Below, piece by piece: positions 4,879 to 31,628 of a DNA stretch of 64,000 nucleotides. A model generated the notes under the pieces. The model had not been told where the DNA came from and searched no databases. It was given only the letters and a program-made list of their open reading frames with translations. Origin of the DNA: a virus (Duplodnaviria; Caudoviricetes); IMG/VR virus record IMGVR_UViG_3300032050_000002. One strand, written 5' to 3'. Positions within the stretch are counted from its first letter, which is position 1, and each line of letters begins with the position of its first letter. Made by a program: the position numbers and the translations under genes.

Positions 4879-4890
4879 ATTTTATTATTT

Positions 4891-6905: not shown

Positions 6906-6947
6906 TTTTTTATTTCTAAAATAATTTATTAATCATAAATATCTAAT

Positions 6948-8408: not shown

Positions 8409-8433
8409 TCAAAAGTTATTTACTTTATAAATA

Positions 8434-12282: not shown

Positions 12283-12656
12283 TATTTTTTCATTTTATAA
12301 GGTTCATCAGTTTTTGATACATCTTTTTGAATTAAATTGGTTAATATAGTATCGTCAACATCTAAGTCAGACAAAGAAAAGGCTTCTTGAGTTGAATTTG
12401 ATTTTTCCCAAATACTTGATTGTAATTTTGATAAAGATAATTTTTTCTCAACACAATCGTTAATTATTTTTTGTTGTTCTTTAATTATAGGACCAAGTAC
12501 TGTCATGTCTTCGGTTTCTTTCATCATTGCTAACATTTTATTTTGAATCCTAATGGCAGTACTTCTCTGTTCTACAAGCTCATTATAAATTTCTTGCATT
12601 AAAGAAAGAATTGATTCTTTCGTTAAATTAATTTCTTTTTTTACCGGTCTTCCCAT
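12282..12656 (-). CDS. hypothetical coiled-coil protein
   Basis: 124-aa ORF; AATATTTATA 4 nt upstream of ATG. Confidence 0.75.
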   Translation of the reverse strand: MGRPVKKEINLTKESILSLMQEIYNELVEQRSTAIRIQNKMLAMMKETEDMTVLGPIIKEQQKIINDCVEKKLSLSKLQSSIWEKSNSTQEAFSLSDLDVDDTILTNLIQKDVSKTDEPYKMKK

Positions 12657-12681
12657 AATTTATAAATATTTAGCGATTGTT

Positions 12682-13431: not shown

Positions 13432-14243
13432 TAATTAACTTCGGATTCATATTTTATGGCTCTATCATTAATAAAGAAATATTCTTTTTTAGCCGATTCA
13501 ATCCAAAAACGTACCTCATCGTCAGACAAAATAGAATCTCCATTTTTGTAATTCCAAAATATAGACCCTTCTCTAAGGTTAGTATGTTTATAACCAATCT
13601 TAGGTATTGTCATAATTTTTAACGAATTGTGAGTTAATCTTAAAAACATTTCATAACCAAAAGTTAATTTAAACGAACCTTTCAATCCTCCAAAATCAGT
13701 GAAAGATGATTTTTTAATCACCATACCTGATGGTTGAAAATTTTGATATGTTTGTAAAGTATCATTACTTAAAATTCCCATTTCAGAAGAAATATTAAGA
13801 GCGAATGTTGCTTCATTTGTAAAACCCGCAAAACTACCTTTTTCGTCAGTATCAACAACTATTGGTAGAAAGGCATCAACTTCAGGATAAACTTCTTCAT
13901 ATTTTTTAACTGATTTAAACCATATGTTAGAGTATTCATCGTCAAATTCAAAAATAGAAATCCATTTAGATTTTGAAATTCTAACTCCATAGTTTATTTG
14001 TTCTGAAAAATTAGGTTCTTTAGTCCAAGAATGTTTTACAACATTAAGGTCTCCAAAATCAAATCCATTTAGATACTCAACCAAAGAAGTTTCGTCTGTA
14101 TGAACAATTATTAATTCATTTATTTTTACTTTTTGTACCTTTAATGATTCGATACATTTTGTGAAATATTCTTCAAATCCTCTTGCTCCGATAGATTTAA
14201 TAGGTAATATTACCGATACGTCAAATTTTTCCATGTTATTCAA
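13431..14243 (-). CDS. glycosyltransferase family 2 (GT-A)
   Basis: VSVILPI...FSEQINYGVRISKSKWISIFEFDDEY; YEMFLRL. Confidence 0.75.
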   Translation of the reverse strand: MNNMEKFDVSVILPIKSIGARGFEEYFTKCIESLKVQKVKINELIIVHTDETSLVEYLNGFDFGDLNVVKHSWTKEPNFSEQINYGVRISKSKWISIFEFDDEYSNIWFKSVKKYEEVYPEVDAFLPIVVDTDEKGSFAGFTNEATFALNISSEMGILSNDTLQTYQNFQPSGMVIKKSSFTDFGGLKGSFKLTFGYEMFLRLTHNSLKIMTIPKIGYKHTNLREGSIFWNYKNGDSILSDDEVRFWIESAKKEYFFINDRAIKYESEVN

Positions 14244-15297
14244 TTGTTTCTAGTTTATTTAATTGTTCTTCAAAAGATACTAATCTTGTATTAATAAATT
14301 CTTCAAAAATAGATAAGGTTTTTTTATAAAAATCATCTTTAGTTAGTAATTCTGAAATTGTTTTTTTCATACCTTCATAAAGAGTTTCACTAACATTATC
14401 CTCCAACCAATTTTGTAAAAATTGAGATGTAAAATCAATTAATTGAAGTTTGTTATTTATCCAAAGACCATTATCTTCATTCATCCATTGAGGCACCATA
14501 CTAGGTACTAATCCTAAAACAGGAACTCCTGATTTCATAGATTCTAGTGGGAATGTTCCATAAGAACTTGTCTCATCAATCCATATTGATAAAAAACAAT
14601 CTTTAAAAGCGTTTGCAAATTCTTTCTCTGTTAAACCTCTCATATCTCTAAAAGTAATCCATCTATACTGAGGGTATTTAACGTAAAATGATTTAATAAA
14701 ATTTGCAGTATCTCTTTGTTCTCTTGAATGAATTGCGATTACAGGTTTTGCGGGATATTTTGTAGTTTCAAAATTTTCAGAAATAAAAGGAGGTAAAATA
14801 TCAAAAGAAACACCTCTCATAATTGTCTCAATATATTCTTTTTGTTTTTCAGATGTGGTAATACATTTATAAAAACCCAATTGAGTCCAAGTTTGTCCTG
14901 GCTGTAATGTTTCAAAAATATGGTCATACGCTTGAGATAAAACCACTTTCCCACAAGGAAGTTTTGTAATTTGGGGCATTACAAATCCAAATAATTCAGG
15001 AATTATAATAAAATCTTCGGGTGATACTTCTAAATTTTGACCCTCTATTGCTCTGTGGGGTAGTTTTTCCATATATTCTTTACCTAACCATCCAGCAACC
15101 CCAACGTAGTCTGGTTTTTCATGTAACATAATCGGATTAAATCCTCCACTCAGTAACGCCATTCCTAAATTGTAAATGTAAGAAATAGACGCTTTAGCAT
15201 TACCTTTAGTATCTTGAACTAAAAGATAAATTCTTGATTTTTTTTGTTTTAGGTTATCAATTGAACCCTCTAACTTTTTAATTTGCTCTTGTGTCAT
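14236..15297 (-). CDS. GT-B fold glycosyltransferase-like protein
   Basis: IIIPELF; C-terminal SSYGTFPLESMKSGVPVLG resembles the GT4 E-x7-E region. Confidence 0.6.
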   Translation of the reverse strand: MTQEQIKKLEGSIDNLKQKKSRIYLLVQDTKGNAKASISYIYNLGMALLSGGFNPIMLHEKPDYVGVAGWLGKEYMEKLPHRAIEGQNLEVSPEDFIIIPELFGFVMPQITKLPCGKVVLSQAYDHIFETLQPGQTWTQLGFYKCITTSEKQKEYIETIMRGVSFDILPPFISENFETTKYPAKPVIAIHSREQRDTANFIKSFYVKYPQYRWITFRDMRGLTEKEFANAFKDCFLSIWIDETSSYGTFPLESMKSGVPVLGLVPSMVPQWMNEDNGLWINNKLQLIDFTSQFLQNWLEDNVSETLYEGMKKTISELLTKDDFYKKTLSIFEEFINTRLVSFEEQLNKLETIE

Positions 15298-15298
15298 A

Positions 15299-15580
15299 TT
15301 AGTATTTGTTTATTAATTTTTTATTTAAAAGACTGTTAAATGCTAATTTAAATGGCATTGATAATCCATTACTTGATTTTAAACCGAGAGTTTCGTCAGT
15401 CTCAGCGTCTTCAGTTAAAATTGTTTCAGTTAATAATTTAACCATATCATATCTTACAACACTGATTGTGTTTTGAGGTGCAGTTTCTCCCGAAAATTCA
15501 TCCAATGGTGTGTCAACATTTATATATTCTTCAATCTTATCTAAATCAAAGTAATAGTGTTCTCCTAAAATTTTTAACAT
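15299..15580 (-). CDS. hypothetical protein
   Basis: 93-aa ORF in operon. Confidence 0.7.
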   Translation of the reverse strand: MLKILGEHYYFDLDKIEEYINVDTPLDEFSGETAPQNTISVVRYDMVKLLTETILTEDAETDETLGLKSSNGLSMPFKLAFNSLLNKKLINKY

Positions 15581-16176
15581 TATATTATTTGTTTTAATTT
15601 TTCCTCAAGCTCTTTTATCGTACTAATTGATAAATCACTTTCAGAATGTTTATTATAAACCGTATCAAATTTTATCACAATTTTATCTGACGGATATTCT
15701 AATAATAAGGCGGGATTTGCGGTAAGTAAAACGTCAATTTCATCCCACATTGAATTAATTGTATAATTACTATAAAATTTTACTTTTTCAAATTGACAAC
15801 CAAACTTAGATAAGAAAAAAAGAGTTGATGGTTTTGATTTACCAATCTCATCTGACACAATAATTAATTCGTGGTCTTCCCTTAATTTTAAATAAACTTC
15901 ATTTAAATCATTAAATGTGTTATATTCTGTTGATTGTGCGTGACCAAATATTTCCATTGGAAATTCTTCATAAAGAAATGAGTATAATTCTTCTTCATTT
16001 TGAAATTTTAAGTGGTCGGATAAATTTAAGGACTCTACAGGTAAAATCATTTCATATTTAAATTCACCGTTGTCTTCAATACCTTCAGTTTTATCAATTA
16101 AAAATTTTTGATAAGTTTGAGTAATTTTATCAATGGTATTTCGTAAAACCCCATTAACTTCAATACCTATTCTCAT
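15580..16176 (-). CDS. HAD-superfamily 5'(3')-nucleotidase-like protein with degenerate motif I
   Basis: MRIGIEVNGVLRN aligns to RIGIDxDGVL; IIVS; YNKH near C-terminus. Confidence 0.55.
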   Translation of the reverse strand: MRIGIEVNGVLRNTIDKITQTYQKFLIDKTEGIEDNGEFKYEMILPVESLNLSDHLKFQNEEELYSFLYEEFPMEIFGHAQSTEYNTFNDLNEVYLKLREDHELIIVSDEIGKSKPSTLFFLSKFGCQFEKVKFYSNYTINSMWDEIDVLLTANPALLLEYPSDKIVIKFDTVYNKHSESDLSISTIKELEEKLKQII

Positions 16177-16898
16177 TCTTCGTATTGTTTTAATATTTTG
16201 CTAATAAGTGGATTTCTAACAATATCTTTATCTTCAAACTCAAAAACACCAACGTCATCAATGTTTTTAAATTTCTGTAAAGCATCCCATAATCCACTTT
16301 GCTTTTTGTCTTTATATCTGTCGGTTTGTTCTAAATCTCCAGATATAAAAAATTTACTATTAAAACCAATTCTTGTCAATAGAAGTTTCATTTGATTTGG
16401 GGTAGAATTTTGAGCTTCTTCAAATATTAAAATTGAGTTGTCTATATTCATACCTCTCATATATGCCAATGCAAATACTTCAATAATGTCATTTTCTTTT
16501 AATTTTTCTCTAGCCTCTTTACCGATAATTTTATTTATTAGGTAATAAGAAGGGAAAATATATGGGTCTAATTTTTCTTCCATATTTCCCGGTAACGAGC
16601 CAAGTTTTTCTTCGGCCTCAACTGCGGGTCTAACAATAATAATTTTTTCATAATTGTTATTAGGGTCGGCAAGTAAATCTAAAGCCGCCTTCATCGCAAT
16701 ATAACTTTTACCAACACCCGCAGGTCCTGAACAAATTGTTATTTGATTGTTTGTTAGAAGATTATAATATTTTTTTTGATTTTCGGATAAGAATTTTTCT
16801 TTTGATTTTTTCTTTATTACCTCAAGTATAAATTCTTTTTTTGTTTTATACTTAATTTGTGGTTCTGTATTTTGTGTTGATTTTTTTCTTTTTTCCAT
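16173..16898 (-). CDS. phoH: PhoH family ATPase
   Basis: GPAGVGKS Walker A, RPAVEAEEKLGSLPG, YMRGMN, IFEEAQN, GDLEQTD, DIVRNPLI. Confidence 0.95.
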   Translation of the reverse strand: MEKRKKSTQNTEPQIKYKTKKEFILEVIKKKSKEKFLSENQKKYYNLLTNNQITICSGPAGVGKSYIAMKAALDLLADPNNNYEKIIIVRPAVEAEEKLGSLPGNMEEKLDPYIFPSYYLINKIIGKEAREKLKENDIIEVFALAYMRGMNIDNSILIFEEAQNSTPNQMKLLLTRIGFNSKFFISGDLEQTDRYKDKKQSGLWDALQKFKNIDDVGVFEFEDKDIVRNPLISKILKQYEE

Positions 16899-17549
16899 TT
16901 ATAGTTTTTGTTTATTTTTTAAATTATTTATTTTTTTAAAAACTTCTTTATTATTTATTTCTTTTTTCCATCTATCGTCTTTAGAAATTTTATTATAATA
17001 TGAAATAGTGTTATTCCATATTGCACATTTTTTATCATAGAATTCATATACTGAATTCCAAAAAAGAAAATCTTCTCTATTCACCCCTTCAAGGTAGAAA
17101 TTTGGCTTTTTACATTCTTTTAAACATTCATAATGAGATAACACATTTCCGGTATCAATAAAATTAAATTTTGGGGGACTTGCAATTAATCTTAATCTTC
17201 CGTCAGGATTAATTTGCTCCCCAATTAACATACCTTTAAAATTATTTTCTTCACATTCTTTATACTTTATATACATGTTTTCATGTAATAAAGTATCGTC
17301 ATCTAATATACAAAAATAACCATTATTTATTTTTGATAGAGCGTAATTTATTTTTGATACTTCATCAGTATCTTCACAATCAACATTGTATAATCTAACT
17401 CTTTTGTCATTTTTAATAAATTCTAAATCAATATCTTCTCTCTTATTTGACTTAGAAATATGCCAAGTGATGTCTTCATTAATTAAAATAGAATTATAAA
17501 TTGTTTCTAAATTTTCAAATCTATATAGTGCAGTTACAATATTTAACAT
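16899..17549 (-). CDS. GT-A (GT2-like) glycosyltransferase
   Basis: IVTALYR; YFCILDDDT; FIDTGN; EDFLF. Confidence 0.65.
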   Translation of the reverse strand: MLNIVTALYRFENLETIYNSILINEDITWHISKSNKREDIDLEFIKNDKRVRLYNVDCEDTDEVSKINYALSKINNGYFCILDDDTLLHENMYIKYKECEENNFKGMLIGEQINPDGRLRLIASPPKFNFIDTGNVLSHYECLKECKKPNFYLEGVNREDFLFWNSVYEFYDKKCAIWNNTISYYNKISKDDRWKKEINNKEVFKKINNLKNKQKL

Positions 17550-17980
17550 TATTTAGTTTTAACAAATTTATACCAAACTCTTTCGTGTATAAAATACAAA
17601 ATCATTTTAGTTATGACCTCAGTTCCTCCTATTGCTAAACCTATTTTTAAATTACCTGTAAGTAACCAACTTATTAATGTCGTATCAATAGTACCAACAA
17701 TTCTCCAAGTTATTGTTTTTGCTAAATGTCTTGCTATAGTATTTTCTTTTTTTTCAGTCTTAATATGTGCAACATTATTTTCTAATTTTAGAACACCTTT
17801 ACAACTGATATGCCATTTATAATCATTTATTTCCAGAATCCAATCTTTTGTAGTGTACGTATTTCCATCAATAATAACGTCAGAAACTAAAATTTCGTTA
17901 CCATTTTCAAGTAATCTCCATCTTTCATTATCTTTAGTTGAATTAGTATTGTATCTAATTTGATATATTTTATTTTCCAT
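17549..17980 (-). CDS. DUF2061-like membrane domain fused to an unknown N-terminal domain
   Basis: RHLAKTITWRIVGTIDT...TEVITKMILYFIHERVW. Confidence 0.75.
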   Translation of the reverse strand: MENKIYQIRYNTNSTKDNERWRLLENGNEILVSDVIIDGNTYTTKDWILEINDYKWHISCKGVLKLENNVAHIKTEKKENTIARHLAKTITWRIVGTIDTTLISWLLTGNLKIGLAIGGTEVITKMILYFIHERVWYKFVKTK

Positions 17981-17983
17981 TTA

Positions 17984-18565
17984 TTATTTCAAGTTTAATT
18001 TATCATAAATAAAATGTGTGCAATCGTCAATTGAGTGTGATTTAGTTTTAACTCTTATTCTTGGATTTATTGGTTCTTCATAAGGAGAATCAATACCAGT
18101 AAACATTTTAATTTGACCCGCCCTTGCCTTTTTATAAAGACCTTTAGGGTCTCTATTTTCACAAACATCTAAAGGAGTATCTACAAAAACTTCTATAAAA
18201 TTTTCTTCACCAATTATTTTTTTGGATTCTTCTCTTTCATTAATAAATGGAGATATAAATGCGGTTATAACTATAAGTCCGGCATCGTTCATTAATTTAG
18301 AAATTTCGGCAATTCTTCTAATGTTTTCTTTTCTATCAGAATCTGAAAACCCCAAATCTTTATTTATCCCTAACCTAATATTATCACCATCTAAAATATA
18401 AGATAGTTTTCCTTTTTCATGTAATAAAATTGATAATTGATTTGCAATGGTTGATTTACCACTGCCAGATAAACCAGTCAACCAAACAACAAATGATTTT
18501 TGATTTAATAATTTTTCTCTATCCGATTTAGAAATTAATAACGTTTGTTTAAATATATTTTCCAT
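17984..18565 (-). CDS. cysC: adenylyl-sulfate (APS) kinase
   Basis: VWLTGLSGSGKSTIA, LDGDNIRLG, RKENIRRIAE, RDPKGLYKKARAG, FTGIDSPYEEP. Confidence 0.95.
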   Translation of the reverse strand: MENIFKQTLLISKSDREKLLNQKSFVVWLTGLSGSGKSTIANQLSILLHEKGKLSYILDGDNIRLGINKDLGFSDSDRKENIRRIAEISKLMNDAGLIVITAFISPFINEREESKKIIGEENFIEVFVDTPLDVCENRDPKGLYKKARAGQIKMFTGIDSPYEEPINPRIRVKTKSHSIDDCTHFIYDKLNLK

Positions 18566-18574
18566 TAAATAATA

Positions 18575-19177
18575 TTAGAACTCATATCCAAAATAATCAA
18601 TATCTCTTTTATACATATGATAAACTTTTTCGGCATCTGAGTCGCTATAGTAAGTTCTATAATGGTCGTGGTTAAATTTATTCCTACACTCTAAGTCTAA
18701 ACTAATATTTAGTTTGGTTGAAATGTTTCTATAATCATCATTAATATTTTCGTACCTACCAATGAAGTCAACATTTATATTTCCTTCTTTGTTTGTGAGA
18801 TAATCAAGTTGATTAAATGATATTGATTTTGGGTAATACTCTCCATTTGGATTGTCATGTCCGATTTTTTCTACAATAATTTCTGTAAGATTTAAAAATT
18901 CACTAAAATTTTTTGAATTGTTTAAAACATATTTTGAAAAGTCGTTGGAAACCTTTAAATTCAAAAACATGTTATACCAAGAAACTAATCTATCCCAAGG
19001 ATTCCTAACAAAAGAAAATTTAAAATAATTTTTATATTCATTTTCTAATTCAGTTATAAATGAATGTTTGTTTTTATATTTTATCCCCCCTGACTTTAAC
19101 ATATTTATACTTATAGATGTTCCGGCTGTTTTATGTATATGAACAAACACATATTTTTTATTATGATTAATAATCAT
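18575..19177 (-). CDS. sulfotransferase (Sulfotransfer_2-like)
   Basis: FVHIHKTAGTS 5'-PSB loop, FVRNPWDRLVSWY 3'-PB motif, GRYENI, YKRDIDYFGYEF. Confidence 0.88.
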   Translation of the reverse strand: MIINHNKKYVFVHIHKTAGTSISINMLKSGGIKYKNKHSFITELENEYKNYFKFSFVRNPWDRLVSWYNMFLNLKVSNDFSKYVLNNSKNFSEFLNLTEIIVEKIGHDNPNGEYYPKSISFNQLDYLTNKEGNINVDFIGRYENINDDYRNISTKLNISLDLECRNKFNHDHYRTYYSDSDAEKVYHMYKRDIDYFGYEF

Positions 19178-19379
19178 TTTTTCTATTATTTGATATTTTT
19201 AATATTTCATTATATAATGAATAATCTTCATCGTGAAAATCAATTATTTTTTTTAATAAAACATCATCCACGCTATAAAATTTGTTTTTGTTATTAACAT
19301 TTAAATTTAAAACTTTTAACGAGTGGGAAAAAGATACTCCCGTTGTTTTTGGTATATGTATATTAACTATTTTCATCAT
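19167..19379 (-). pseudogene. internally deleted sulfotransferase remnant
   Basis: has IHIPKTTGVS (N-terminal PAPS loop) and DFHDEDYSLY (C-terminal motif) but lacks the ~130-aa core including RxP...S. Confidence 0.55.
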
Positions 19380-19932
19380 AAAATCTATTTATTTTATTTT
19401 TTTGTTCTTCAGTTAATTTAAATTCATACCTTTCATTATCAGGTTTAAGAGAATGAAAATTTGAAAGTCCAGTCATACCAAGATATTCCTCAATCGATTT
19501 AACGTCAAAGAAATTAAATATCTTAATATCTTTACTAATTTCACCGTTTTCACCAATAATAAATTCTTTATAGTGTAAATTGTGATTATCGAAAATCAAT
19601 GAATTTTTTTTATCTAAAAAATAATTTAAAAAAATGTCAAAATTTTCAACGTATTGTTCTAAACCATTAGAATATTTTCTTAAATAAAAATATTCTGAAA
19701 TAACTCTATCAATATTTGGTCTAATTACAGTAAAAATTTTATTAGTTAATAATCCCATCTCTTTAAGTTCTCTATAGGTACAGTGTTGAGGACTATGACC
19801 ATTTATATAACCTTGTTTTCTAACAGAACGAAATTTCACATCATATCCGTTATCCTTAACAAATTTCTCAATAGAATCTCCACCTGTTTTTGGAATATGG
19901 ATAAATGTTATTTCGTCATTAAAAATCGGCAT
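19363..19932 (-). CDS. sulfotransferase (Sulfotransfer_2-like)
   Basis: FIHIPKTGGDS, HSPQHCT, FTVIRPNIDRVISEY. Confidence 0.82.
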   Translation of the reverse strand: MPIFNDEITFIHIPKTGGDSIEKFVKDNGYDVKFRSVRKQGYINGHSPQHCTYRELKEMGLLTNKIFTVIRPNIDRVISEYFYLRKYSNGLEQYVENFDIFLNYFLDKKNSLIFDNHNLHYKEFIIGENGEISKDIKIFNFFDVKSIEEYLGMTGLSNFHSLKPDNERYEFKLTEEQKNKINRFYDENS

Positions 19933-20871
19933 CAGTCAAAAAAAAATTATAAATTTATTGTGGTATCTTTATAACCATATATGATATGTATATCCTCTAA
20001 ATTAGAGATGTGATTTTGGGAATTCTTATTAATCATCAATTAATTTTAAATTAATATCATTTATAGTGTCATTTAATAAATCGTTATAATAATATAAACA
20101 AAATTCACTTTTAAGATAATACTCTTCAAACCTTTCGTATTCTTTAAATAATTTTTTATCTTCTTTTACAAATTCCTTATAATTCATATTATAATTAGAG
20201 TATAAATTTCTTATAAAATCATTTACAAACGTTAATCTTCCTGACCCAATAATTTTGTGAGATTCGCAATTAATTGATTCTTTAACAACAAATTTAGGAT
20301 GAATAATATCTCTATAAAAATAAGTATCTCCAATTTCAATAGTTTCTTTATTTATAATTGAATTGAATATTTTACCAAATAAAAAATTCTTATCTCTATA
20401 TATAGAATTGAAATTGAATGGAAATAATATTATTACGTTTGAGTATCTACTACCATTATCAATGATATGTTTAGTAATTTTATATTTGGATTCTATATAA
20501 GGGGTATTGTAAAAATTAAAAGGGGTTGACAAATTTATTTGACCTGAATTTTTATTCCAAAGTTCGCATGTAGAATAAATAATTACTTTATTTGCTCTTA
20601 TTATGAAGAATTCAATAAATTCTAACGTAATTGTAAAATTAACTTCATAATATTCATTTATATTTTCTATGAATTTTTTAGATTCGCCAATACAAATAAA
20701 AACCCTATCCCATTTTGAATTTTCATATTCTTGAAAATTAAAGTTTCTACCGGAAACTTTTCTATAGTTATCAGCGAAATAATAAGATAGTTGAGATGTG
20801 TTTCCTATAACTAAGTTATTCATGTTTTATAACCTTAAATTAAATGTTATTTCGTTATTAAAAATTGGCAT
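19902..20871. repeat. 31-bp direct repeat pair (29/31 identical) at 19902-19932 and 20841-20871 flanking the epimerase gene
   Basis: taaatgttatttcgtcattaaaaatcggcat vs taaatgttatttcgttattaaaaattggcat. Confidence 0.85.
20029..20823 (-). CDS. NAD-dependent nucleotide-sugar epimerase/dehydratase-like protein
   Basis: NLVIGNTSQL degenerate Rossmann start, IIYSTCELW, PYIESKY (YxxxK), FNFNS...FLFGKI, YRDIIH. Confidence 0.7.
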   Translation of the reverse strand: MNNLVIGNTSQLSYYFADNYRKVSGRNFNFQEYENSKWDRVFICIGESKKFIENINEYYEVNFTITLEFIEFFIIRANKVIIYSTCELWNKNSGQINLSTPFNFYNTPYIESKYKITKHIIDNGSRYSNVIILFPFNFNSIYRDKNFLFGKIFNSIINKETIEIGDTYFYRDIIHPKFVVKESINCESHKIIGSGRLTFVNDFIRNLYSNYNMNYKEFVKEDKKLFKEYERFEEYYLKSEFCLYYYNDLLNDTINDINLKLIDD

Positions 20872-20876
20872 TTATT

Positions 20877-21371
20877 TTATATTTTTTCTCCAAAAATCAT
20901 GAAAGAATTATTTAAATCAATCCCTGATTTAAATATGTTTTTATAACCTCTATCTAACATATAATCATAAATAATTTGGGGAGTGAATACATTTTTATGT
21001 TTCAAGTTATTCCAAGGTCTCCAATATACTTGAGAGTAATCAGGTAGATACAAAAAAAGAACTCCACCTTCTTTTAAATTATCATACCAATAATTCATAA
21101 CACTAACCCAATCGTTAATATGTTCTAAACAATGACTTGAAAATATATAGTCAACATTCTTTTTAGGTAAGTTCAAAGCGTGAAATCCGTCATTAAAACT
21201 CAAATCTATTGGTATTGAGTTTGGAAACGACCATTCTTTTTTCATACAACCAATATCATATCCTTCACCATAACAAACTTGTTTTGCAAATGGTATTGCA
21301 TATTGCGATGCGTTTCCTTGAGATTGAAAAATGGGGTATATATTCCCCTTATATTCTATAGTTTTTATCAT
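20877..21371 (-). CDS. class I SAM-dependent methyltransferase (start at MIKTIEY, ATGA overlap)
   Basis: YDIGC, VDYIFSSHCLEHI, LKEGGVLFLYLP. Confidence 0.8.
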   Translation of the reverse strand: MIKTIEYKGNIYPIFQSQGNASQYAIPFAKQVCYGEGYDIGCMKKEWSFPNSIPIDLSFNDGFHALNLPKKNVDYIFSSHCLEHINDWVSVMNYWYDNLKEGGVLFLYLPDYSQVYWRPWNNLKHKNVFTPQIIYDYMLDRGYKNIFKSGIDLNNSFMIFGEKI

Positions 21372-21967
21372 AAATTTTTTTTTGGTTGGCAAATTATATA
21401 TCCTTCATGCCTATAGTCTTTAACTATAGTGTGTGTATCTGATAATATATCGTAAATAAAATTAACACCTGAAGAAGTCTTCTCGTTTTTTAAAACCCCA
21501 TCCCAATTTCCAGATTGGTAATTTCCTTTCTCATAAATCCTTAAATCATCAATAATGAAAACATCATTCTCAATATTTTTACTTTCTTTTATAATTCTTA
21601 ATTCTTTCTCTAAAGGTATAAAAATTTCTTTATTATTTAAATAATCATTACCAAAACTATTGTCATAAAAATCAGGTAAATGAGCATCTAACCAAAACAA
21701 ACAATTTTTTTTTGTTAGTTGAGGTAATAATTCTATTAATCCATCAATGGAGTTATTTTTTATTAATTTTATTTGGCGATTCTTACTAAACCTTTGGGTG
21801 CAAAGATTGTAAAATTTATCCAATAATTCGATACTATACATATCCTCAAACCCAAATGATGATGCGTAATCTAAACTGTCTCCCATATAAGTACCCGTTT
21901 CTACAAAGACAGATAGATTGTTTTTAATTTTGTATTGATTCAAATCAAATATTTTAAGTGTGCCCAT
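21368..21967 (-). CDS. SAM-dependent methyltransferase-like protein
   Basis: FVETGTYMGDS, YSIEL, FWLDAH, IIDDLR. Confidence 0.7.
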   Translation of the reverse strand: MGTLKIFDLNQYKIKNNLSVFVETGTYMGDSLDYASSFGFEDMYSIELLDKFYNLCTQRFSKNRQIKLIKNNSIDGLIELLPQLTKKNCLFWLDAHLPDFYDNSFGNDYLNNKEIFIPLEKELRIIKESKNIENDVFIIDDLRIYEKGNYQSGNWDGVLKNEKTSSGVNFIYDILSDTHTIVKDYRHEGYIICQPKKNL

Positions 21968-21968
21968 T

Positions 21969-22589
21969 TTATTTTTTTTTAAAAACCGCGGTTAATATGT
22001 TTTTATCATTGTTAGTATTTTTTCTTATAATGTCTTCAATATTATTATAATTAATAAGTTCATATTCATTTTCATTCATAAAATTTATTAATGATTTTTC
22101 AGAAAAATGAAATAAATGTTCATTCGGCCTAAGGTGTCTCCATTTAGAAAACCATTCATCTGAAAAATTATGACACCAAGGAACCGAAATAACAACATAC
22201 TTAGTTTTTAATTTTTTTACAAATGATATATCTTCAAAATGTTCTAAAGAGTCAAAAAAAGTTACAACATCTACCTCAATTTCTATAGATTCAGATAGTA
22301 AACATCCTTCAGGTAATTTATATCCTGATATATCATAACCGTAACATTTGTTTATCGTGTTTTTACAAACAGATAAAAAATCACCATTTCCATAACCGAC
22401 ATCAAGTATTGAATTTGGAATATGTCCAATACTCCCTATAATAAAACCATATCTTAAATAGGACATTCTAACACCCAATTCACCATATGTATTATAACTC
22501 CTCTCAATATATTCCGTGTCGTATTTTCTTTTGTTTATTACCGATTGTTTAATAACACCGTTGGGTAATTCTTTATAATTTTCTAACAT
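21969..22589 (-). CDS. class I SAM-dependent methyltransferase
   Basis: ILDVGYGNGDFL, YGYDI, DVVTFFDSLEHF. Confidence 0.85.
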   Translation of the reverse strand: MLENYKELPNGVIKQSVINKRKYDTEYIERSYNTYGELGVRMSYLRYGFIIGSIGHIPNSILDVGYGNGDFLSVCKNTINKCYGYDISGYKLPEGCLLSESIEIEVDVVTFFDSLEHFEDISFVKKLKTKYVVISVPWCHNFSDEWFSKWRHLRPNEHLFHFSEKSLINFMNENEYELINYNNIEDIIRKNTNNDKNILTAVFKKK

Positions 22590-22593
22590 TTTT

Positions 22594-23280
22594 TTAATTT
22601 ATTAATTTCCAATTAAGTTTAGATTTGGCAAAATCTTTACTAGGTCTACAATATGTGTGAAAAAATAGTTCATTTTCAAAATTGAAAGAGTCAATCATCA
22701 TTCTAAATGATGAATCCATACAATGAATTTCTTTAGCGTTCTCAATAAGAGTTAAGTAGTCAAAAACATTTTTCGTAAGTTCTGGTATAGGTCTAATAAC
22801 TTTTTTATTTTTTAAAAATTCATTTCTAATATTAAAATTCCTAAAATTGTCATCATGTACAAAAATATATTCTTTTTTAATAAGATTAAATTTTTCAAAA
22901 AAAATTAATTCTCTTTTGAAATCTCTTTCACATTTAAAGTTATTCCATCTTTCATTGAAATCAATAGAATTACTTAAATAAAAATTTTCATCGAAGCTAT
23001 GTGACATAAATTTATTAGTTAAAGTTATTCTTATAATGTCTTCTTTTTGTATTTTATTTTTTAAAATGTATTCATACACAAAATTGTCATTAGTCGCATA
23101 GTCTTGGTAACCTGAAATAAAATTTATGTTTTTTAAATCTCTAAACATAAATTTTAAACTTTCTAAGTTTTGTTTATGGGAAAAAATTAGATATTCTTCA
23201 TCATCTCTAATAATTTTACGGAGCATACCGTTACAAATAAAAAAATCTCCAAGACCTAAATGAGGATATATATATTTCAC
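22594..23280 (-). CDS. putative GT-B glycosyltransferase-like protein
   Basis: HLGLGDFFICNG N-terminus, YIFVHDD, EIHCMDSSF; GT9/fucosyltransferase-like layout. Confidence 0.5.
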   Translation of the reverse strand: MKYIYPHLGLGDFFICNGMLRKIIRDDEEYLIFSHKQNLESLKFMFRDLKNINFISGYQDYATNDNFVYEYILKNKIQKEDIIRITLTNKFMSHSFDENFYLSNSIDFNERWNNFKCERDFKRELIFFEKFNLIKKEYIFVHDDNFRNFNIRNEFLKNKKVIRPIPELTKNVFDYLTLIENAKEIHCMDSSFRMMIDSFNFENELFFHTYCRPSKDFAKSKLNWKLIN

Positions 23281-23281
23281 G

Positions 23282-24004
23282 TTATTTTATTTTTTTAAAA
23301 ACTCTATTATGACCAACACAAATTAATTCAACAAAATCAGTATCTGATTCTAATTTTTCTTTAACCGCATTACAAACGTCTATATGACCTTTAAATCTTC
23401 CCGGTTCGTTAGATAACGATTTAAAACAAGAAGAATCGTCTAAAACAACAAATCCGTCAACTTTTACAATTTGTTTTGTGAGTTCTATATCTGAAATAAC
23501 ACAATTGTAATCGTGACATCCGTCAATATAAACAATATCAAAAGATTTCATGTTAATTAACTTGGTTTTAATTTCGGTGTTAGTCGAGTCCCCTTTAATT
23601 AAATTAATATTTGAATCAAAATTCAAATTAAAATATTTAAATAAATCTTTAATTGTCTGTTCGTAATTAGTCTTTTCATAAATAGAAAATTTATCTCCCG
23701 AACTATCAAAAGGCGACGCACCATAAAATTCTACTTTTTTATCATAATTGTCTGATAACAATTTTATCAGACTAAGAACTTGACCTTTGTAAACCCCAAT
23801 TTCTAAAAATTTGAATTCTTTTGGTTGTAATTTTATTAGTTCCCTCCACATAGTATGAAACGGTCTTTCACCATATCCTAAATTATTTTTTTCTATGTGG
23901 ATTCTGTGTTTTAACAATAATTCATCTTTTAAAAATTCGGACATAAATGTTTGATATATTTTGTCCAAATTAGATTCTTTTTGATTTTCTAAAATTAAAT
24001 TCAT
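23282..24004 (-). CDS. SAM-dependent methyltransferase (Methyltransf_24-like)
   Basis: FLEIGVYKGQ, IKGDS, FDIVYIDGCHDY, VVLDD. Confidence 0.85.
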   Translation of the reverse strand: MNLILENQKESNLDKIYQTFMSEFLKDELLLKHRIHIEKNNLGYGERPFHTMWRELIKLQPKEFKFLEIGVYKGQVLSLIKLLSDNYDKKVEFYGASPFDSSGDKFSIYEKTNYEQTIKDLFKYFNLNFDSNINLIKGDSTNTEIKTKLINMKSFDIVYIDGCHDYNCVISDIELTKQIVKVDGFVVLDDSSCFKSLSNEPGRFKGHIDVCNAVKEKLESDTDFVELICVGHNRVFKKIK

Positions 24005-24007
24005 TTT

Positions 24008-24691
24008 TTAATAAATTGATGGTTGGAAATAATTATATTTTATTTTATCAGTTCCAAAATTTATACTTTTTAACTTATTTTTGATAAATAAGTTTGTCAA
24101 AATACTTTGGTCATATCTGTGTTCTTTGAAATTATTTATATTTGGTAGTCCACTCACGTTTTGTATTTCAGTTAAAATATTTTTATTTTTGGTAAATTCG
24201 TACCATTCTTCGACAAATTTTACGTTAAAATCGTTATTTTTTAATCCAACAACTCCGGCCTCTAATTGCACCGAATTATGATATTCGGGACTATCACATT
24301 CCATTAATACAAAAGTATCTCTTTTTGTCCACTGTCCATGATTATAACCTCTATTAACGAAAAAATAATCGTTATTTTTAAAATGTTCAACTATAGAATC
24401 AAAAAAAGGTTTTAATGGTAAATCAGTTGAATCAACATAAAGTAGTATATCTTCTTTACCAATTTTATTTAACTCATTTAATATTATAAAAGGTTTCCAA
24501 ATGCAATACCCATATCCCCTTTTATACAATAGAATTTCTTTATGTTCTTCTAAAAATGATTTTGGTAAATCATCTTGGGTTAAATTAATTTGTTTATTAA
24601 TACCAATTCTATCTAAATGATTTTTTAATTTATTTTGCGAATCAATAAAATTTCCTTTCGCAAAAGTTAAGACAATTATATTATCATACAT
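24008..24691 (-). CDS. putative GT-A glycosyltransferase
   Basis: YCIWKPFII, ILLYVDS, EHRYDQSILT. Confidence 0.55.
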   Translation of the reverse strand: MYDNIIVLTFAKGNFIDSQNKLKNHLDRIGINKQINLTQDDLPKSFLEEHKEILLYKRGYGYCIWKPFIILNELNKIGKEDILLYVDSTDLPLKPFFDSIVEHFKNNDYFFVNRGYNHGQWTKRDTFVLMECDSPEYHNSVQLEAGVVGLKNNDFNVKFVEEWYEFTKNKNILTEIQNVSGLPNINNFKEHRYDQSILTNLFIKNKLKSINFGTDKIKYNYFQPSIY

Positions 24692-24696
24692 AATAT

Positions 24697-25452
24697 TTAA
24701 ATTTTATTATTAATTAATTTTTTATGACTTTCATCATAATCAACATGGTGGGTTTGAGTTCCGTGCGAATTTAATTGGAAGTGTTTTATTAATCCACTGG
24801 TTAATTTCATTTTTTTATTTTTTATTAAATAGAAAAATGAAATTGCTCTTTCTTGAGCGTGACCACAATATTCATCCTCTTTTATTTCGTCTATTAATGG
24901 TTCAAACCAATTCATATATTCGTTAAAAATTTCTTTTTTAAATGTTATGTTATTAGTTGATGACCAAAATGAATCCGGATATGTTTTAACGATAGAATCA
25001 ATAATATTTTTTACATCTAAGTTATGTATTTTTTTAATTGCCGGTAATACACTTCTAACCCAATTATTGTTATTAATAAAATGGTAATTATCTAATCTAA
25101 TTGGAACATACCCAACCAAGTCACAATCTTCATTGAAGAAGTTATCTATTATTGTTTCAAACTGTTCTGATAATACTACATCGTATTCAATTAACGAAAC
25201 ATAATCTGTAGTCACCAAATTATTTTTCCAAATCATATACCATCCTGTAAATGCGGTAAAAAGAGGATAGTCTTCTAAATTTTCTTTAAAATTTCTTGCG
25301 ATTAATACATTTTTTAAATTACTAATTTTGGAAACGTCTTTTTTACCAACAAAAACATAACAATAATCTTTTAAATTTTTAAATTTATTATTTTGTTCAA
25401 ATTGTAAAAGAAGTTCTTGGTCGTGAATAAATATAAATGTTTTATGTGTCAT
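24697..25452 (-). CDS. putative GT-A glycosyltransferase
   Basis: DYVSLIEYDV, GHAQER; context within the glycan island. Confidence 0.45.
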   Translation of the reverse strand: MTHKTFIFIHDQELLLQFEQNNKFKNLKDYCYVFVGKKDVSKISNLKNVLIARNFKENLEDYPLFTAFTGWYMIWKNNLVTTDYVSLIEYDVVLSEQFETIIDNFFNEDCDLVGYVPIRLDNYHFINNNNWVRSVLPAIKKIHNLDVKNIIDSIVKTYPDSFWSSTNNITFKKEIFNEYMNWFEPLIDEIKEDEYCGHAQERAISFFYLIKNKKMKLTSGLIKHFQLNSHGTQTHHVDYDESHKKLINNKI

Positions 25453-26954
25453 TGTTTAATAAATTTTTTTAAATATTTTAAATTATCAATTACAAATGGA
25501 GTTAGGTTTTCTAAATAATCCTTCTCTTCTCTTTCTTTTCTTTCAGGCTCATTTTTTCTTGTTTGACTTTCTAAATGATATGCTACTAAATTACTATCAC
25601 AATAATTAACATAACCTAAAGTTAGACATTTACAATTTAGTTCAAAATCTTCTAAATGTATATCATATTTTTCATTAAAATATCCACAAATTTCAAAAAC
25701 TTTTTTTCTAATCATTAACAATGCTGCGGTAGAACCAAGAACATCGTGTAAATTAACTGAATGATTGTAATAATGTTTAGCACCAAAATGTTTTAAAACA
25801 AATACTTTAAACTTATCAAAAAACGGCGTAATACCATCATGTTGCACTGTATTATCTTCATAATGAAGTCTTGCGCCAACAGTTCCGGTATTTTTATTAT
25901 TTTTAAATGTATTTAACATTCCATATATAACGTTATTTAACACAACAATATCATTATTACAAAATAGTAAAAACTCGTATTCACTGTTAACATGGTTTTT
26001 AACCACGTCATTATTTATTTTTGCAAAATTATAATAATCGTATTCTATTAATTTTATATTACCCAACTTTAATATATTAGTTTTAATATATTCTTTTTCA
26101 TCAGGTTCAGAACCCGTATCGGCAATAAAAATGTCAAATAGATTAGAGTTACAATTTTGGTAGAAAGATTTAATACAATTCTCCAACATCTCAACTTTTC
26201 CTTTGGTTGGGATTATTACCGCTACTTTACCAATATTTTTTATTGGTCGTTCTTTAATTTGAGGTATATAAATTTTTTCAGGTTTTAAATCTAACGGTAG
26301 TTTACTTCCCCATTTTTCCAAAAATTTTGATTTTGATGTAAAAAACTCATGATTGGGTTGACCCACAGATTCGTGAGTAATTTCAAAAGAAGATGTAACA
26401 CCTATTTTAATACCATCCAAATAATTAGGAATACAAAAAGAATGGTCATAAAAATGAAATCTACCTATAGTCTCATCAAAATTATGTTTAATTTTTCTTT
26501 TATCAAAAGAAATAAAAAGACCATCAATTGTTACAACGGAAACTAAAAAAGGTAATTTCGGAGAATACCTACTTAACCATTTCTTTTGTCCTTGAGGTTG
26601 ATGATAAACTTGCCCAACCATAGTCTCTTTCATTTTCTCCCAGTAAATTCCTGATTCAGGAAAATAACAACTACCTGCCTTTCCGATTATGCCGAAGTCT
26701 GAATTATTAGAATAATCTTCTAATAATTTTTTACCCCAATTTTTTTCTAATTTTATATCATTATGACAACATACAACAATATCATATATCGATTCATTAA
26801 TTCCTTTGTTGTAAATTTCAGCTAAAGAATATTGGTTATGATTTAAATATTCTAAGATTTGAACGTCTTTAATACCAACACTTTTAACTAAATGTTCTTT
26901 AAATTTAAGATTATAATCTAAATCTTTATGAGTGGAATAAATTATTGTTATCAT
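25449..26954 (-). CDS. two-domain GT2 glycosyltransferase
   Basis: IVVCCHNDI...FHFYD first domain; VAVIIPT, NFAKINN, LLFCNNDI, EDFELN second domain. Confidence 0.85.
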   Translation of the reverse strand: MITIIYSTHKDLDYNLKFKEHLVKSVGIKDVQILEYLNHNQYSLAEIYNKGINESIYDIVVCCHNDIKLEKNWGKKLLEDYSNNSDFGIIGKAGSCYFPESGIYWEKMKETMVGQVYHQPQGQKKWLSRYSPKLPFLVSVVTIDGLFISFDKRKIKHNFDETIGRFHFYDHSFCIPNYLDGIKIGVTSSFEITHESVGQPNHEFFTSKSKFLEKWGSKLPLDLKPEKIYIPQIKERPIKNIGKVAVIIPTKGKVEMLENCIKSFYQNCNSNLFDIFIADTGSEPDEKEYIKTNILKLGNIKLIEYDYYNFAKINNDVVKNHVNSEYEFLLFCNNDIVVLNNVIYGMLNTFKNNKNTGTVGARLHYEDNTVQHDGITPFFDKFKVFVLKHFGAKHYYNHSVNLHDVLGSTAALLMIRKKVFEICGYFNEKYDIHLEDFELNCKCLTLGYVNYCDSNLVAYHLESQTRKNEPERKEREEKDYLENLTPFVIDNLKYLKKFIKQ

Positions 26955-29540: not shown

Positions 29541-31562
29541 TTATGTTATAAGATTTTTTTCTAAAAACTCGGACAATTTGTCTAAATTAAATTTATCTAA
29601 CATTTTTTGTTTCGTTATTTTTATTTTTTCTTCAAAAAAATTATAATTGTTGTAAACTTCCAATATTTTTTTTGAAGCGTCATCAATATCTGGCTCGGCC
29701 CAATTAGATTTATTGTTTAGTTCAAGATATGCGTTATGACTTGCATCAATCTTTGTAAGATTATAATTAACTAATTGACAATTTTCGTCACAAAAGTCTA
29801 AATTACCTGAAAAATTTGTGCAAACAACAGGAATTTCTAAATTTATTGCCTCCATCATTGTTAACCCTAAACCTTCTGAACGATGTAAAGAAATATATAA
29901 ATCAGCACTGTTAAATAAATCTGAAATTGATTCTCTATCTAATGTTTTATTAATTAAGATAATTCTATCATCTTTAAACTCGTTATGATTAATAAAATCA
30001 TTGTCATTACAATTATGAGTTTTAATAATTAAAACAACGTTTTCATCATTATGAAACGTTTTTTTAAATGACTTAATTGTCGCAAAAGGATTTTTTCTAC
30101 TAACATCACTACCGTAATCAAATGAAAATAGACAAACAAATTTACCATCAAACCCTAATTTTTTTTTAATATTATCTTTATTTTTTTTATCAAAAAAATC
30201 TGTAGGTATATTTAAAGTTTTTATGTTTTTGTTTAAAATATTTCTTTTAAAAGAATCTTCACAAAATTTGGAGATTGTCCAAATTTCATCAAATATTTTA
30301 GATTCTTTAATCCAAGTATCCGGAACATCGGGTAGTTCCCATGCCCATAATACAATATTATATTTATCTTTAATATAATTTTCACCAACAAGGTTTAAAA
30401 ACTTTGTCTCAGGATTACATATTATTAAATTACTATTGAAATAATTAAATTCTTCATTTAACATATAATTTTTATCGTTAAATGAATTTGGGAGATTTAT
30501 ATTAAAAGGTATTTTAGATTTTTTAAGTGATTTTATCACACTTCTCATGATTTGACCTAATCCGCTATCAGTATTTCCATATCCATATAGATTAACACCT
30601 TTAAACTTTTTTAAAAATCTTTCAAAAAGATTATCATCAAAAAAACTATCGACAAATGGTTGATGACACCCAAAAGTATCATCATAAAATTCGTGTTCAA
30701 AAGAAAATTTTTTACAAATTTCAACATTAGGTATATTATATTTATTTATTTTTCTAATAAAATATGAAAAAAACAAATCTTCGTAGTTTTGGTCGATGTC
30801 CGATGGTTTAACACTAAATGAATTATAATTTTTTATAATTTCAATCATAGCGTTTACCGACCTTAAACTTAATCCTCCATTACCAAAATAAACATCAAAA
30901 TCTAAATTATAGTCTTTTTTTATTGAGTCGGAATGTGCAGATGGTCCCCAAGGAGCACCAATATAATCCCATTCTAAAAAAGAGTTGTCAAATTCTTTAA
31001 AAATAAAAGTGTCTGATTGATAAATTAATACTTTCTCACAAGAAATTTTTTCCCAAAATTCCAAACTTAATAGAAGATTATTATATGAATTTCTATCTAT
31101 TTTTTTGTTTTCTAAATTAATGATTTCAATATTAGGTGATATTTCTTTTTTTAAATTTTTAATTTCATTAAAATTATTGTTTCCGCAAAAAATAATATGA
31201 CCCCACCCGTCACCCAACTTTTGTATAGTATTTTTTATTGTGAATTCAATCTGTTTGTTCCATCTAGTTTCAACTATTACAGATTTATTTTTAGAATTTT
31301 CAGATATTTTAGGGAAATTAGGTTCTAAATAACCTAATAATTTTTCACATAAATTATTAAATATTTTAATTTTATTCTCTTTATTTTTTAAAGATAACCA
31401 TTTTTCATTTTTTTTATACAATCTATTTTCTTTACGTCCATAATTAAGATAATGGTGAGTAACTCTTTCTTTTGTTATTATCCCCGCTTTTTTTAAATCA
31501 GGATTATATTTCAAATATAATTTCCAATCAAAGTCTTCAGGTAAAGTTTTATAATTATCCAT
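29541..31562 (-). CDS. multidomain glycosyltransferase (FDWxxY domain + DUF5672-like + GT4)
   Basis: FDWKLYLKYNPDL...HYLNYGRKENR; WDYIGAPW...GNGGLSLRS; LYISLHRSEGLGLTMMEA. Confidence 0.8.
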   Translation of the reverse strand: MDNYKTLPEDFDWKLYLKYNPDLKKAGIITKERVTHHYLNYGRKENRLYKKNEKWLSLKNKENKIKIFNNLCEKLLGYLEPNFPKISENSKNKSVIVETRWNKQIEFTIKNTIQKLGDGWGHIIFCGNNNFNEIKNLKKEISPNIEIINLENKKIDRNSYNNLLLSLEFWEKISCEKVLIYQSDTFIFKEFDNSFLEWDYIGAPWGPSAHSDSIKKDYNLDFDVYFGNGGLSLRSVNAMIEIIKNYNSFSVKPSDIDQNYEDLFFSYFIRKINKYNIPNVEICKKFSFEHEFYDDTFGCHQPFVDSFFDDNLFERFLKKFKGVNLYGYGNTDSGLGQIMRSVIKSLKKSKIPFNINLPNSFNDKNYMLNEEFNYFNSNLIICNPETKFLNLVGENYIKDKYNIVLWAWELPDVPDTWIKESKIFDEIWTISKFCEDSFKRNILNKNIKTLNIPTDFFDKKNKDNIKKKLGFDGKFVCLFSFDYGSDVSRKNPFATIKSFKKTFHNDENVVLIIKTHNCNDNDFINHNEFKDDRIILINKTLDRESISDLFNSADLYISLHRSEGLGLTMMEAINLEIPVVCTNFSGNLDFCDENCQLVNYNLTKIDASHNAYLELNNKSNWAEPDIDDASKKILEVYNNYNFFEEKIKITKQKMLDKFNLDKLSEFLEKNLIT

Positions 31563-31600: not shown

Positions 31601-31628
31601 AAAATCCCCACCTTTTTATGTGAGGATT
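31601..31628 (-). terminator. intrinsic terminator
   Basis: minus strand AATCCTCAC-loop-GTGGGGATT (one G-U pair) followed by T-rich tail. Confidence 0.7.

Follow-up and report, generated by a model that had tools for sequence, protein, structure and literature searches.

Why does a bacteriophage encode its own adenosine 5'-phosphosulfate (APS) kinase, and which pathway does the kinase serve? The question is raised by a 64,000-nucleotide stretch of viral DNA (the window, meaning the whole stretch analysed) from IMG/VR record IMGVR_UViG_3300032050_000002 (Duplodnaviria; Caudoviricetes), where the APS kinase gene cysC sits in a run of five genes with two sulfotransferase genes, ST1 and ST3, a 70-codon open reading frame (ORF) and a gene for a DUF2061 protein. 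The window corresponds to bases 58691-122690, read on the reverse strand, of a 203 kb record with a CheckV completeness of 68%, i.e., about two thirds of the genome. APS kinases convert APS to 3'-phosphoadenosine 5'-phosphosulfate (PAPS), the sulfotransferase donor, and an initial annotation of the window had proposed that here the enzyme feeds the sulfation of a phage-made glycan and does not serve sulfur assimilation. We consider this probable in the following form: the phage carries its own source of activated sulfate and, with it, two enzymes that spend it on a glycan that would be built in the host cytoplasm. The initial annotation as a whole was partly supported, its central proposal being strengthened and its statements on host APS, on a sulfotransferase remnant and on the DUF2061 protein each holding in part. 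The five genes, whose coordinates were all confirmed, are given in their order of transcription:

19363..19932, minus strand: ST3, a 189-amino-acid soluble, divergent Sulfotransfer_2-like sulfotransferase, as predicted by profile comparison, invariant residues and modelled fold
19167..19379, minus strand: a plausible 70-codon sulfotransferase stub, by BLASTP to ST3 and ST1 over the first ~30 residues
18575..19177, minus strand: ST1, a 200-amino-acid soluble Sulfotransfer_2 enzyme (PF03567, E = 6.4e-15)
17984..18565, minus strand: CysC, a 193-amino-acid APS kinase (PF01583, E = 4.1e-68)
17549..17980, minus strand: the DUF2061 protein, 143 amino acids (PF09834, E = 2.9e-23)

All five genes are co-oriented and are joined by overlaps or by gaps of at most 9 bases, with cysC starting 9 bases past the ST1 stop, the DUF2061 gene starting 3 bases past the cysC stop, and the DUF2061 stop sharing one base with the start codon of the next gene. 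CysC, the only APS kinase of the record, covered the complete PF01583 profile (positions 1-152 of 152; 228.7 bits against a cut-off of 21.1) and carries the P-loop GLSGSGKST, DGDNIR, the APS-binding FSxxDRxENIRR motif as FSDSDRKENIRR, and the mobile lid (RDPKGLYKKAR; RDPKGLYKKARAGQIKMFTGIDSPYE). When it was aligned with nine other phage CysC proteins, every residue invariant across the ten was kept, and the enzyme is predicted to make PAPS from APS. ST1 matched PF03567 at 56.4 bits (cut-off 22), residues 2-199 aligning with profile positions 4-252 of 252, and retained all the residues that 95% or more of 120 family members share (including K16, H38, R58, R63 and S66), which comprise the lysine of the 5'-phosphosulfate loop, the Arg/Ser motif for the 3'-phosphate and a histidine. 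The ST1 family numbers 3559 proteins that are frequently auto-named chondroitin 4-sulfotransferase 11, a name that should not be taken literally.

ST3 is more divergent, and as a single sequence it had no Pfam match even at E = 5. Among its 61 homologues, 10 carry PF03567, and a comparison of the ST1 and ST3 family profiles by hhalign gave a probability of 98.3% (E = 2.5e-14) over 167 columns. The homologue alignment further revealed an invariant set consisting of K15 in the 5'-phosphosulfate loop IHIPKTGG, H50, R71, R76, S79 and H117. An AlphaFold2 model of ST3 (predicted local distance difference test score, pLDDT, 90.2) was searched against 48,161 representative chains, and the top 19 rows were all PAPS-dependent sulfotransferases, led by heparan sulfate 2-O-sulfotransferase 3f5f (Z 10.1, root-mean-square deviation 3.4 Å, 164 of 189 residues), which was tied within one Z unit with cytosolic sulfotransferases (SULTs) and heparan 6-O-sulfotransferase. 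Foldseek against the Protein Data Bank (PDB) gave weak E-values (0.02 or worse), and every row was again a sulfotransferase; a sequence search of solved structures had no match for ST1 at E = 1 and, for ST3, none above the level of chance. Judged by profile comparison, conserved residues and predicted fold together, ST3 is a real sulfotransferase, and the claim that an intact APS kinase lies beside two complete Sulfotransfer_2-like genes was thereby borne out.

Between ST3 and ST1 lies the 70-codon ORF, which shares 17 bases with the end of the former and 11 with the start of the latter. It resembles ST3 (BLASTP E = 7e-4) and ST1 (E = 1e-3) over its first 30-60 residues, which include an IHIPKTTG loop; it has no 3'-phosphate motif, no match to the ST1 or ST3 family profiles and no homologue among the loci compared. 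Such a product cannot be an enzyme, and the ORF is most simply, and plausibly, the 5' remnant of a third sulfotransferase. The remnant named in the initial annotation is thus plausible but weakly backed, by likeness over roughly the first 30 residues with E-values of 7e-4 and 1e-3 and no family-profile match. A second relic lies at 20871-20827, upstream of an epimerase-like gene, and encodes MPIFNNEITFNLRL followed by a stop; its first 31 bases match 19932-19902 at 29 of 31 positions, and MPIFNNEITFIHIPK is the consensus N-terminus of the ST3 family.

The surroundings of the module proved informative in close relatives of the phage. These were fetched by means of the adjoining PhoH gene, which returned more than 500 viral contigs (the best 80 being 77-97% identical), and a gene-by-gene tblastn was run against G100 (PhoH 97% identical) and against the 60 kb around PhoH in G054, a 97%-complete genome of 291 kb. 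The relevant features are as follows:

17549..25452, minus strand: variable sugar-tailoring block of 12 genes and 7.9 kb (tblastn against relatives, GC content, Pfam)
20827..20871, minus strand: orphan 14-codon relic of an ST3-family 5' end (direct sequence reading)
16899..17549, minus strand: left flank, a 216-amino-acid protein with a DDD motif (ILDDDT), conserved in G100 and G054
25449..26954, minus strand: right flank, a 501-amino-acid double GT2 glycosyltransferase (PF13712, 3e-21; PF00535, 1.3e-12)
29541..31562, minus strand: DUF5672-GT4 glycosyltransferase, 673 amino acids (PF18922, 5.7e-34; PF00534, 5.3e-11)

Both relatives match the window at 3618-17549 (27-98% identical) and again from 25449 onward, and no gene of 17549-25452 had a tblastn match in either. 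This block holds the DUF2061 gene, cysC, ST1, the stub, ST3, a gene resembling short-chain dehydrogenases/epimerases, three recognised methyltransferases, three ORFs without a family match and a weak DUF4422 match; its GC content is 24.4%, compared to 27.5-28.2% in the flanks. Sequence identity declines toward its edges, the left flank being 66% identical in G100 (60% in G054) next to neighbouring genes at 89-97% in G100 and the adjoining PhoH at 97%, and the right flank being 71% identical in G100 (62% in G054) next to neighbours at 84-94% in G100. This is the pattern expected for exchange by recombination within the flanks, and it suggests that cassettes have been swapped at this slot. In G100 and G054 the same slot carries a BKACE enzyme, a hexapeptide acyltransferase and a DegT aminotransferase, with a GNAT acetyltransferase and a GT2 in addition in G054, so that amination/acylation sets (L187:5185-7250 and L190:8000-11917) stand where the window has sulfation/methylation (17549-25452). 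Since its contents differ between relatives, the slot holds alternative sets of sugar-tailoring enzymes, and sulfation would thus be one exchangeable option for decorating glycans in this lineage of phages. G100 also carries a CmcI-type and another methyltransferase just past the right-flank glycosyltransferase. The left-flank protein, which has no Pfam or PHROG match, looks like a glycosyltransferase. The DUF5672-GT4 gene is an accessory one, for which tblastn found no counterpart in the 60 kb of G054 and which recurs beside sulfation genes in other phages.

The same relatives provided a control. Among the 50 longest (PhoH 77-85% identical; four of them, of 274-291 kb, 93-99% complete), an APS kinase was found in none, and a sulfotransferase in two, one a sub-threshold Sulfotransfer_2 match and the other a Sulfotransfer_3. 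The only clear sulfotransferase of this set (G065:C1:95071-95670) ends up 1.7 kb from a contig end, beyond which a cysC is possible. Three closer relatives (PhoH 85-97%), which are fragments of 11-45 kb and 3-8% completeness, also had no cysC. The kinase and the sulfotransferases are thus jointly absent from relatives, and this, together with the 9-base gap between ST1 and cysC and the tailoring block around them, argues that cysC serves the sulfotransferases.

We then asked what accompanies cysC in other viral genomes. In IMG/VR, 114 cysC loci were found by profile scan; the best 80 formed 55 clusters at 90% CysC identity, and 49 cysC-bearing records were searched (the five shortest and one other of the 55 being left out). 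Sulfotransfer_1, _2 or _3 was present in 27 of the 49 (24 over curated cut-offs), within 10 kb of cysC in 19 and within 5 kb in 15. By comparison, PAPS_reduct occurred in 5 of the 49, within 10 kb in four and within 5 kb in three, and three cysC-adjacent PAPS_reduct products are of 281-358 amino acids, the size of CysD and not of CysH. The initial annotation had named co-occurrence of cysC with cysH as grounds for refuting its reading; the pattern seen is not of that kind. Sulfotransfer_2 or _3 was found in 26 of 49 cysC records compared to 2 of 50 PhoH relatives (Fisher P = 2e-8, descriptive only, the control being one lineage and the cysC set a mixture with many fragments), and in 24 of 38, again compared to 2 of 50, when only cysC records of at least 50 kb were counted.

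Individual loci repeat the arrangement. In L028, a 232 kb phage whose PhoH is 57% identical, the order is GT2, GT2, GT25, Sulfotransfer_2, GT10, FkbM methyltransferase, CysC, nucleotidyltransferase and DUF2061. The L008/L037 group has a double GT2 (52% identical to the right flank), CysC, a nucleotidyltransferase, DUF2061 and a DUF5672-GT4, a weak homologue of which also lies near cysC in L071. On the 141 kb contig L101, an ST3-like and an ST1-like gene are directly adjacent with no stub between them and are followed by a 52%-identical DUF5672-GT4; upstream lie GT25, Sulfotransfer_4, another Sulfotransfer_2-like gene, DUF2061 and glycosyltransferases, and no cysC occurs within 10 kb of the pair. 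A bacterial relative of ST3 (46% identical) is part of a chromosomal CysD-CysN-CysC-DUF2061-sulfotransferase cassette.

The 203 kb record contains no PF01747 ATP sulfurylase, no PF01507 PAPS_reduct, no PF00459 CysQ-type gene and no PF01467 cytidylyltransferase-like gene, which extends the reported absence of a sulfurylase from the window to the whole record. With no sulfurylase candidate there, the phage can, within the record, only turn ready-made APS to PAPS. The dependence on host APS put forward in the initial annotation fits this lack, on a record that covers about two thirds of the genome. From the genes we infer the following course of events. Host CysDN would make APS, phage CysC would phosphorylate it to PAPS, and the soluble, mutually divergent ST1 and ST3 would move the sulfate to hydroxyls at two positions, or on two sugars, of a glycan. 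This acceptor would be assembled by the conserved glycosyltransferases and the accessory DUF5672-GT4 and further decorated by methyltransferases, and the by-product 3'-phosphoadenosine 5'-phosphate (PAP) would be left to the host for removal. An own kinase may be of use where the PAPS demand of a stoichiometric modification exceeds the supply from the host's regulated CysC. The genes are intact, tightly packed and co-oriented, were gained together among glycosyltransferases and come with no clear membrane protein, which is why the pathway is placed in the cytoplasm.

Other phages differ in what accompanies the kinase. A gene for a ~150-amino-acid cytidylyltransferase-like protein (KKYAIFIGRYQPYHYGH; PF01467, 5.9e-7) directly follows cysC in 24 of the 55 viral cysC clusters (e.g., L003:8590-9057 and L008:8956-9420) and is fused to it in L005:7977-9026; the protein is a candidate substitute for ATP sulfurylase. 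The phage of the window and L004/L022 have no such cysC-linked gene, and tblastn with the small nucleotidyltransferase that follows cysC elsewhere gave no match in the record. Some phage CysC proteins carry a C-terminal HAD-like domain (L008:7986-8951, HAD_2 4.7e-5; L018:7767-8939) that may act as a phosphatase for the inhibitory by-product PAP, and in L018 all three of DUF2061, APS kinase and HAD are joined in one protein.

Where such a glycan would end up is a separate matter. The island encodes no clear membrane or export protein, so that the glycan's most likely carrier, on present gene content, would be a phage protein, probably one that is part of the particle. The further proposal of the initial annotation, a sulfated virion coat that could act as a lure by mimicking sulfated polysaccharides or could shield the particle, gains no support from these observations and is speculative. 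An unlikely alternative, and the one that fares best, is that the glycan, or the sulfate alone, is placed on a host envelope molecule (lipopolysaccharide, capsule or another polysaccharide), for instance to block superinfection or to release progeny from debris. Phages are known to remodel host surface glycans through Gtr and Oac seroconversion modules, rhizobia make a sulfated lipopolysaccharide by means of the PAPS-dependent LpsS, and the location of the island outside the structural operon would suit such a target. Known seroconversion modules, however, depend on membrane proteins, and among the 24 island proteins there is no clear transmembrane segment or signal peptide, and none reaches a 19-residue hydropathy of 1.6. 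Pfam recognised no flippase, polymerase or ligase in the island, and Pfam and hydropathy together revealed no membrane-embedded flippase, bactoprenol glycosyltransferase or acyltransferase of the Gtr/Oac type. The phage moreover looks large and lytic, for which a late change of the host surface would be of less obvious value. Modification of DNA with sugars was considered as the purpose of the island and set aside, as the glycosyltransferases and the aminotransferase, acyltransferase and methyltransferase genes appear typical of oligosaccharide synthesis.

Improbable to a similar degree is that cysC, together with the DUF2061 gene, is an auxiliary metabolic gene that boosts host assimilation (from APS over PAPS and sulfite to cysteine), the sulfotransferases being unrelated passengers that draw on host PAPS. 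This is the published reading of phage cysC: a survey by COBRA interpreted it as an assimilatory sulfate-reduction gene and mentions sulfotransferases 0 times (PMC10914622). The DUF2061 protein bears on it most closely. Its match to PF09834 (82.5 bits, cut-off 23.1) covers residues 86-136, and an AlphaFold2 model (pLDDT 86) has a seven-strand beta N-domain (residues 1-80) and a two-helix hairpin (81-139). The closest cellular homologues are 57-75% identical and come nearly all from Bacteroidota, where DUF2061 heads DUF2061-cysC-cysD-cysN operons, with cysC next to it in 61 of 80 loci, cysD present in 62 of 80, and an ST1/ST3-type sulfotransferase within 5 kb in only 3 of 80; these operon heads span Flavobacteriales, Chitinophagales and Cytophagales (loci L192-L271). 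DUF2061 also lies within 3 kb of cysC in 24 of the 49 viral cysC records and has been placed in the nodH-nodPQ locus of Mesorhizobium (bioRxiv 10.1101/2022.04.26.489235); we found no paper that states its link to sulfate-activation operons. The protein is a companion of sulfate activation generally and does not separate sulfation from assimilation, because it heads ordinary Bacteroidota operons of this kind. Its inclusion in the sulfation module was therefore justified insofar as it travels with cysC, but not as a mark of sulfation; by sequence relationship, it supports a Bacteroidota origin or host. The phage pair thus mirrors the head of the Bacteroidota operon, and phage sulfotransferases exist without an adjacent cysC (L101), both of which favour assimilation. 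Set against these are the lack of a PAPS reductase and a sulfurylase in the record, the low frequency of PAPS_reduct relative to sulfotransferases in cysC records, the relatives that have neither cysC nor sulfotransferases, and the position of cysC 9 bases from ST1 in a block whose counterparts in relatives consist entirely of sugar-tailoring genes.

The DUF2061 protein has some further features of its own. Its beta N-domain, of about 80 residues with many invariant polar ones, matched 184 proteins, and 117 of the 120 listed also have PF09834, nearly all in the same two-part architecture; the domain is absent from the 80 bacterial loci compared. A fold search with the model returned only helical-hairpin look-alikes (Z of at most 6.5, covering residues 78-143), and a complex prediction of CysC with the DUF2061 protein gave a score of 0.00, which is uninformative either way. 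Pfam labels DUF2061 as a predicted membrane protein. In the phage protein the 19-residue hydropathy peaks at 1.55, just below the usual 1.6, and the helices contain charged residues, so that insertion of the hairpin into a membrane is uncertain on sequence grounds. An identical DUF2061 protein is present on 13 contigs, the longest of which (307,689 bases) may be the complete genome of the phage.

Quite unlikely is a non-glycan acceptor for the sulfotransferases, whether small metabolite, lipid or protein side chain, with the neighbouring glycosyltransferases belonging to a separate pathway. The ST3 model matched small-molecule SULTs (Z 9.1-9.6) about as well as carbohydrate sulfotransferases (Z 9.4-10.1), and the acceptor-binding parts of ST1 and ST3 have no characterised relative and no PDB sequence match. 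Against this, tyrosylprotein sulfotransferases scored much lower (Z 5.9), ST1 is a full-length Sulfotransfer_2 match, and sulfotransferase or cysC genes lie between glycosyltransferases in at least four phage lineages (this one, L028, L101 and L037). Characterised Sulfotransfer_2 members are, moreover, mainly carbohydrate enzymes. That the module is decaying cargo with no current function, as the block's two relics, the 70-codon stub and the orphan start of 14 codons, and its unusually low GC content might suggest, is very improbable, as CysC, ST1, ST3 and the DUF2061 protein are full length with every family-invariant residue checked being kept, and the stretch persists in lake and freshwater metagenomes.

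This persistence was read from sampled 31-base words, which placed the stretch wholly or largely in lake and freshwater metagenomes of several studies from 2017-2024; the matches support persistence of the DNA only, and no RNA dataset was among the sequencing runs matched. Deposited phage genomes contained no near-identical DNA.

Several points weigh against the sulfation of a phage-made glycan as proposed here. The comparison sets are not phylogenetically independent, the control being a single lineage and many records being fragments. Linkage is not obligatory, as the sulfotransferases of L101 have no cysC nearby. In the modelled fold, ST3 resembles small-molecule SULTs (Z up to 9.6) as well as it does carbohydrate enzymes, and the DUF2061-cysC pair, typical of general sulfate activation in Bacteroidota, is by itself equally compatible with assimilation. 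About a third of the genome lies outside the record, where a sulfurylase or cysH could be encoded. The enzyme activities, the acceptor and the sulfate ester are predictions from sequence, and the island adjoins PhoH, dUTPase and exonuclease genes outside the structural operon, with nothing that ties the glycan to the particle.

Established systems place these observations in context. Like NodP/NodQ-NodH of rhizobia and RaxP/RaxQ-RaxST of Xanthomonas, the phage module has an APS kinase beside the sulfotransferase that would consume its product, within a cluster that would build the acceptor: 9 bases separate ST1 from cysC, with glycosyltransferases and methyltransferases to either side. Unlike them, it has no ATP sulfurylase in the 203 kb, contains two sulfotransferases and two relics, and occupies a swappable slot. 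With the DUF2061-cysC-cysD-cysN operons of Bacteroidota it shares a DUF2061 domain that is 57-75% identical and lies beside cysC, but only these two genes have been taken, their order is reversed and the beta N-domain has been added. ST1 and ST3 share with the animal Golgi enzymes of the Sulfotransfer_2 group (heparan sulfate 2-O- and chondroitin 4-sulfotransferases) the Pfam family (ST1), the 3f5f fold (ST3, as modelled), the lysine loop for the 5'-phosphosulfate and the Arg/Ser motif for the 3'-phosphate, and differ in being of only ~190-200 amino acids, having no membrane anchor or stem and being at most 19% identical.

Virion glycosylation offers another comparison. Chlorovirus capsid glycans contain methylated sugars. 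In Che8-like phages, glycosyltransferases and capsid glycosylation have been mentioned (PMC11256854), and both the chlorovirus systems and those of mycobacteriophage Che8 type, which modify capsid and tail, resemble the island in combining soluble viral glycosyltransferases and methyltransferases with no export machinery; no sulfation or PAPS supply was found there, and attachment to the virion is suggested here by the genes alone. The cysC genes of the COBRA survey belong to the same gene family and likewise come from large freshwater phage genomes; in that study the genomes of cysC phages exceeded those of cysH phages in size, and phage cysC was found to be transcribed in a lake (PMC10914622). 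In contrast to its reading, cysC is tied here by position and co-occurrence to sulfotransferases and not to cysH. The function of phage sulfotransferases, in turn, "remains unclear" (PMC10580990). The literature searched held no published description of a phage cassette of cysC plus sulfotransferase, phage cysC being treated as an assimilation gene. To this the present case adds a matched natural control in the form of relatives that have neither gene, the context of a tailoring slot, and the operon origin of DUF2061.

Beyond the module, every gene from ~4 to 34 kb of the window lies on the minus strand, and the GC content ranges across the window from 24 to 39% with its minimum at 16-26 kb. 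A promoter and terminator scan of 13-32 kb gave 132 sites compared to 139 expected from shuffled sequence, and the T4 late-promoter word TATAAATA was not enriched there (22 against 19.5 expected). The only minus-strand terminator-like hairpin of this interval (31603-31628) lies just upstream of the DUF5672-GT4 gene and is compatible with a single long transcription unit downstream, in a scan that was overall no richer than shuffled sequence. The 264-amino-acid epimerase-like protein (20029-20823) aligns with no more than the central part of the NAD-dependent epimerase profile (1.4e-7), has GNTSQLS at the site of the Rossmann glycine motif and keeps YxxxK (YIESK); it could be a reductase of the RmlD kind or else an inactive relative. 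A 198-amino-acid protein at 15580-16176, starting with MRIGIEVNGVL, resembles the N-terminus of HAD-type nucleotidases with Glu and Asn at the positions of the expected catalytic aspartates, and since it is kept (89% in G100) in relatives without cysC, it lies outside the sulfation block. Four large downstream proteins (4891-12282) and several ORFs of the block had no PHROGs or Pfam match.

Taken together, the observations allow a wider and more tentative reading, which we hold to be possible rather than likely: in a lineage of freshwater jumbo phages, the particles would be coated with a glycan of the phage's own making, and the exchange of cassettes at a single slot would switch its chemistry, which would be sulfated and methylated here and aminated and acylated in close relatives, in a serotype-like manner. 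The phage would then be the first bacterial virus known to bear sulfate esters made through its own PAPS supply, and most of the phage cysC genes at present assigned to sulfur assimilation would serve sulfation. If cysC feeds phage sulfotransferases, ecological readings of viral cysC as a means of steering sulfur assimilation need revision, and the role of phage sulfotransferases gains a concrete candidate, namely the production of sulfated glycoconjugates in the course of infection. The two sulfotransferases, which are small, soluble, free of an anchor and of carbohydrate type, would with their matching kinase also be compact candidates for enzymatic sulfation. The swappable slot suggests a variation of phage glycans akin to that of bacterial O-antigens, with implications for adsorption, for grazing or enzymatic attack and for the recognition of the particle.

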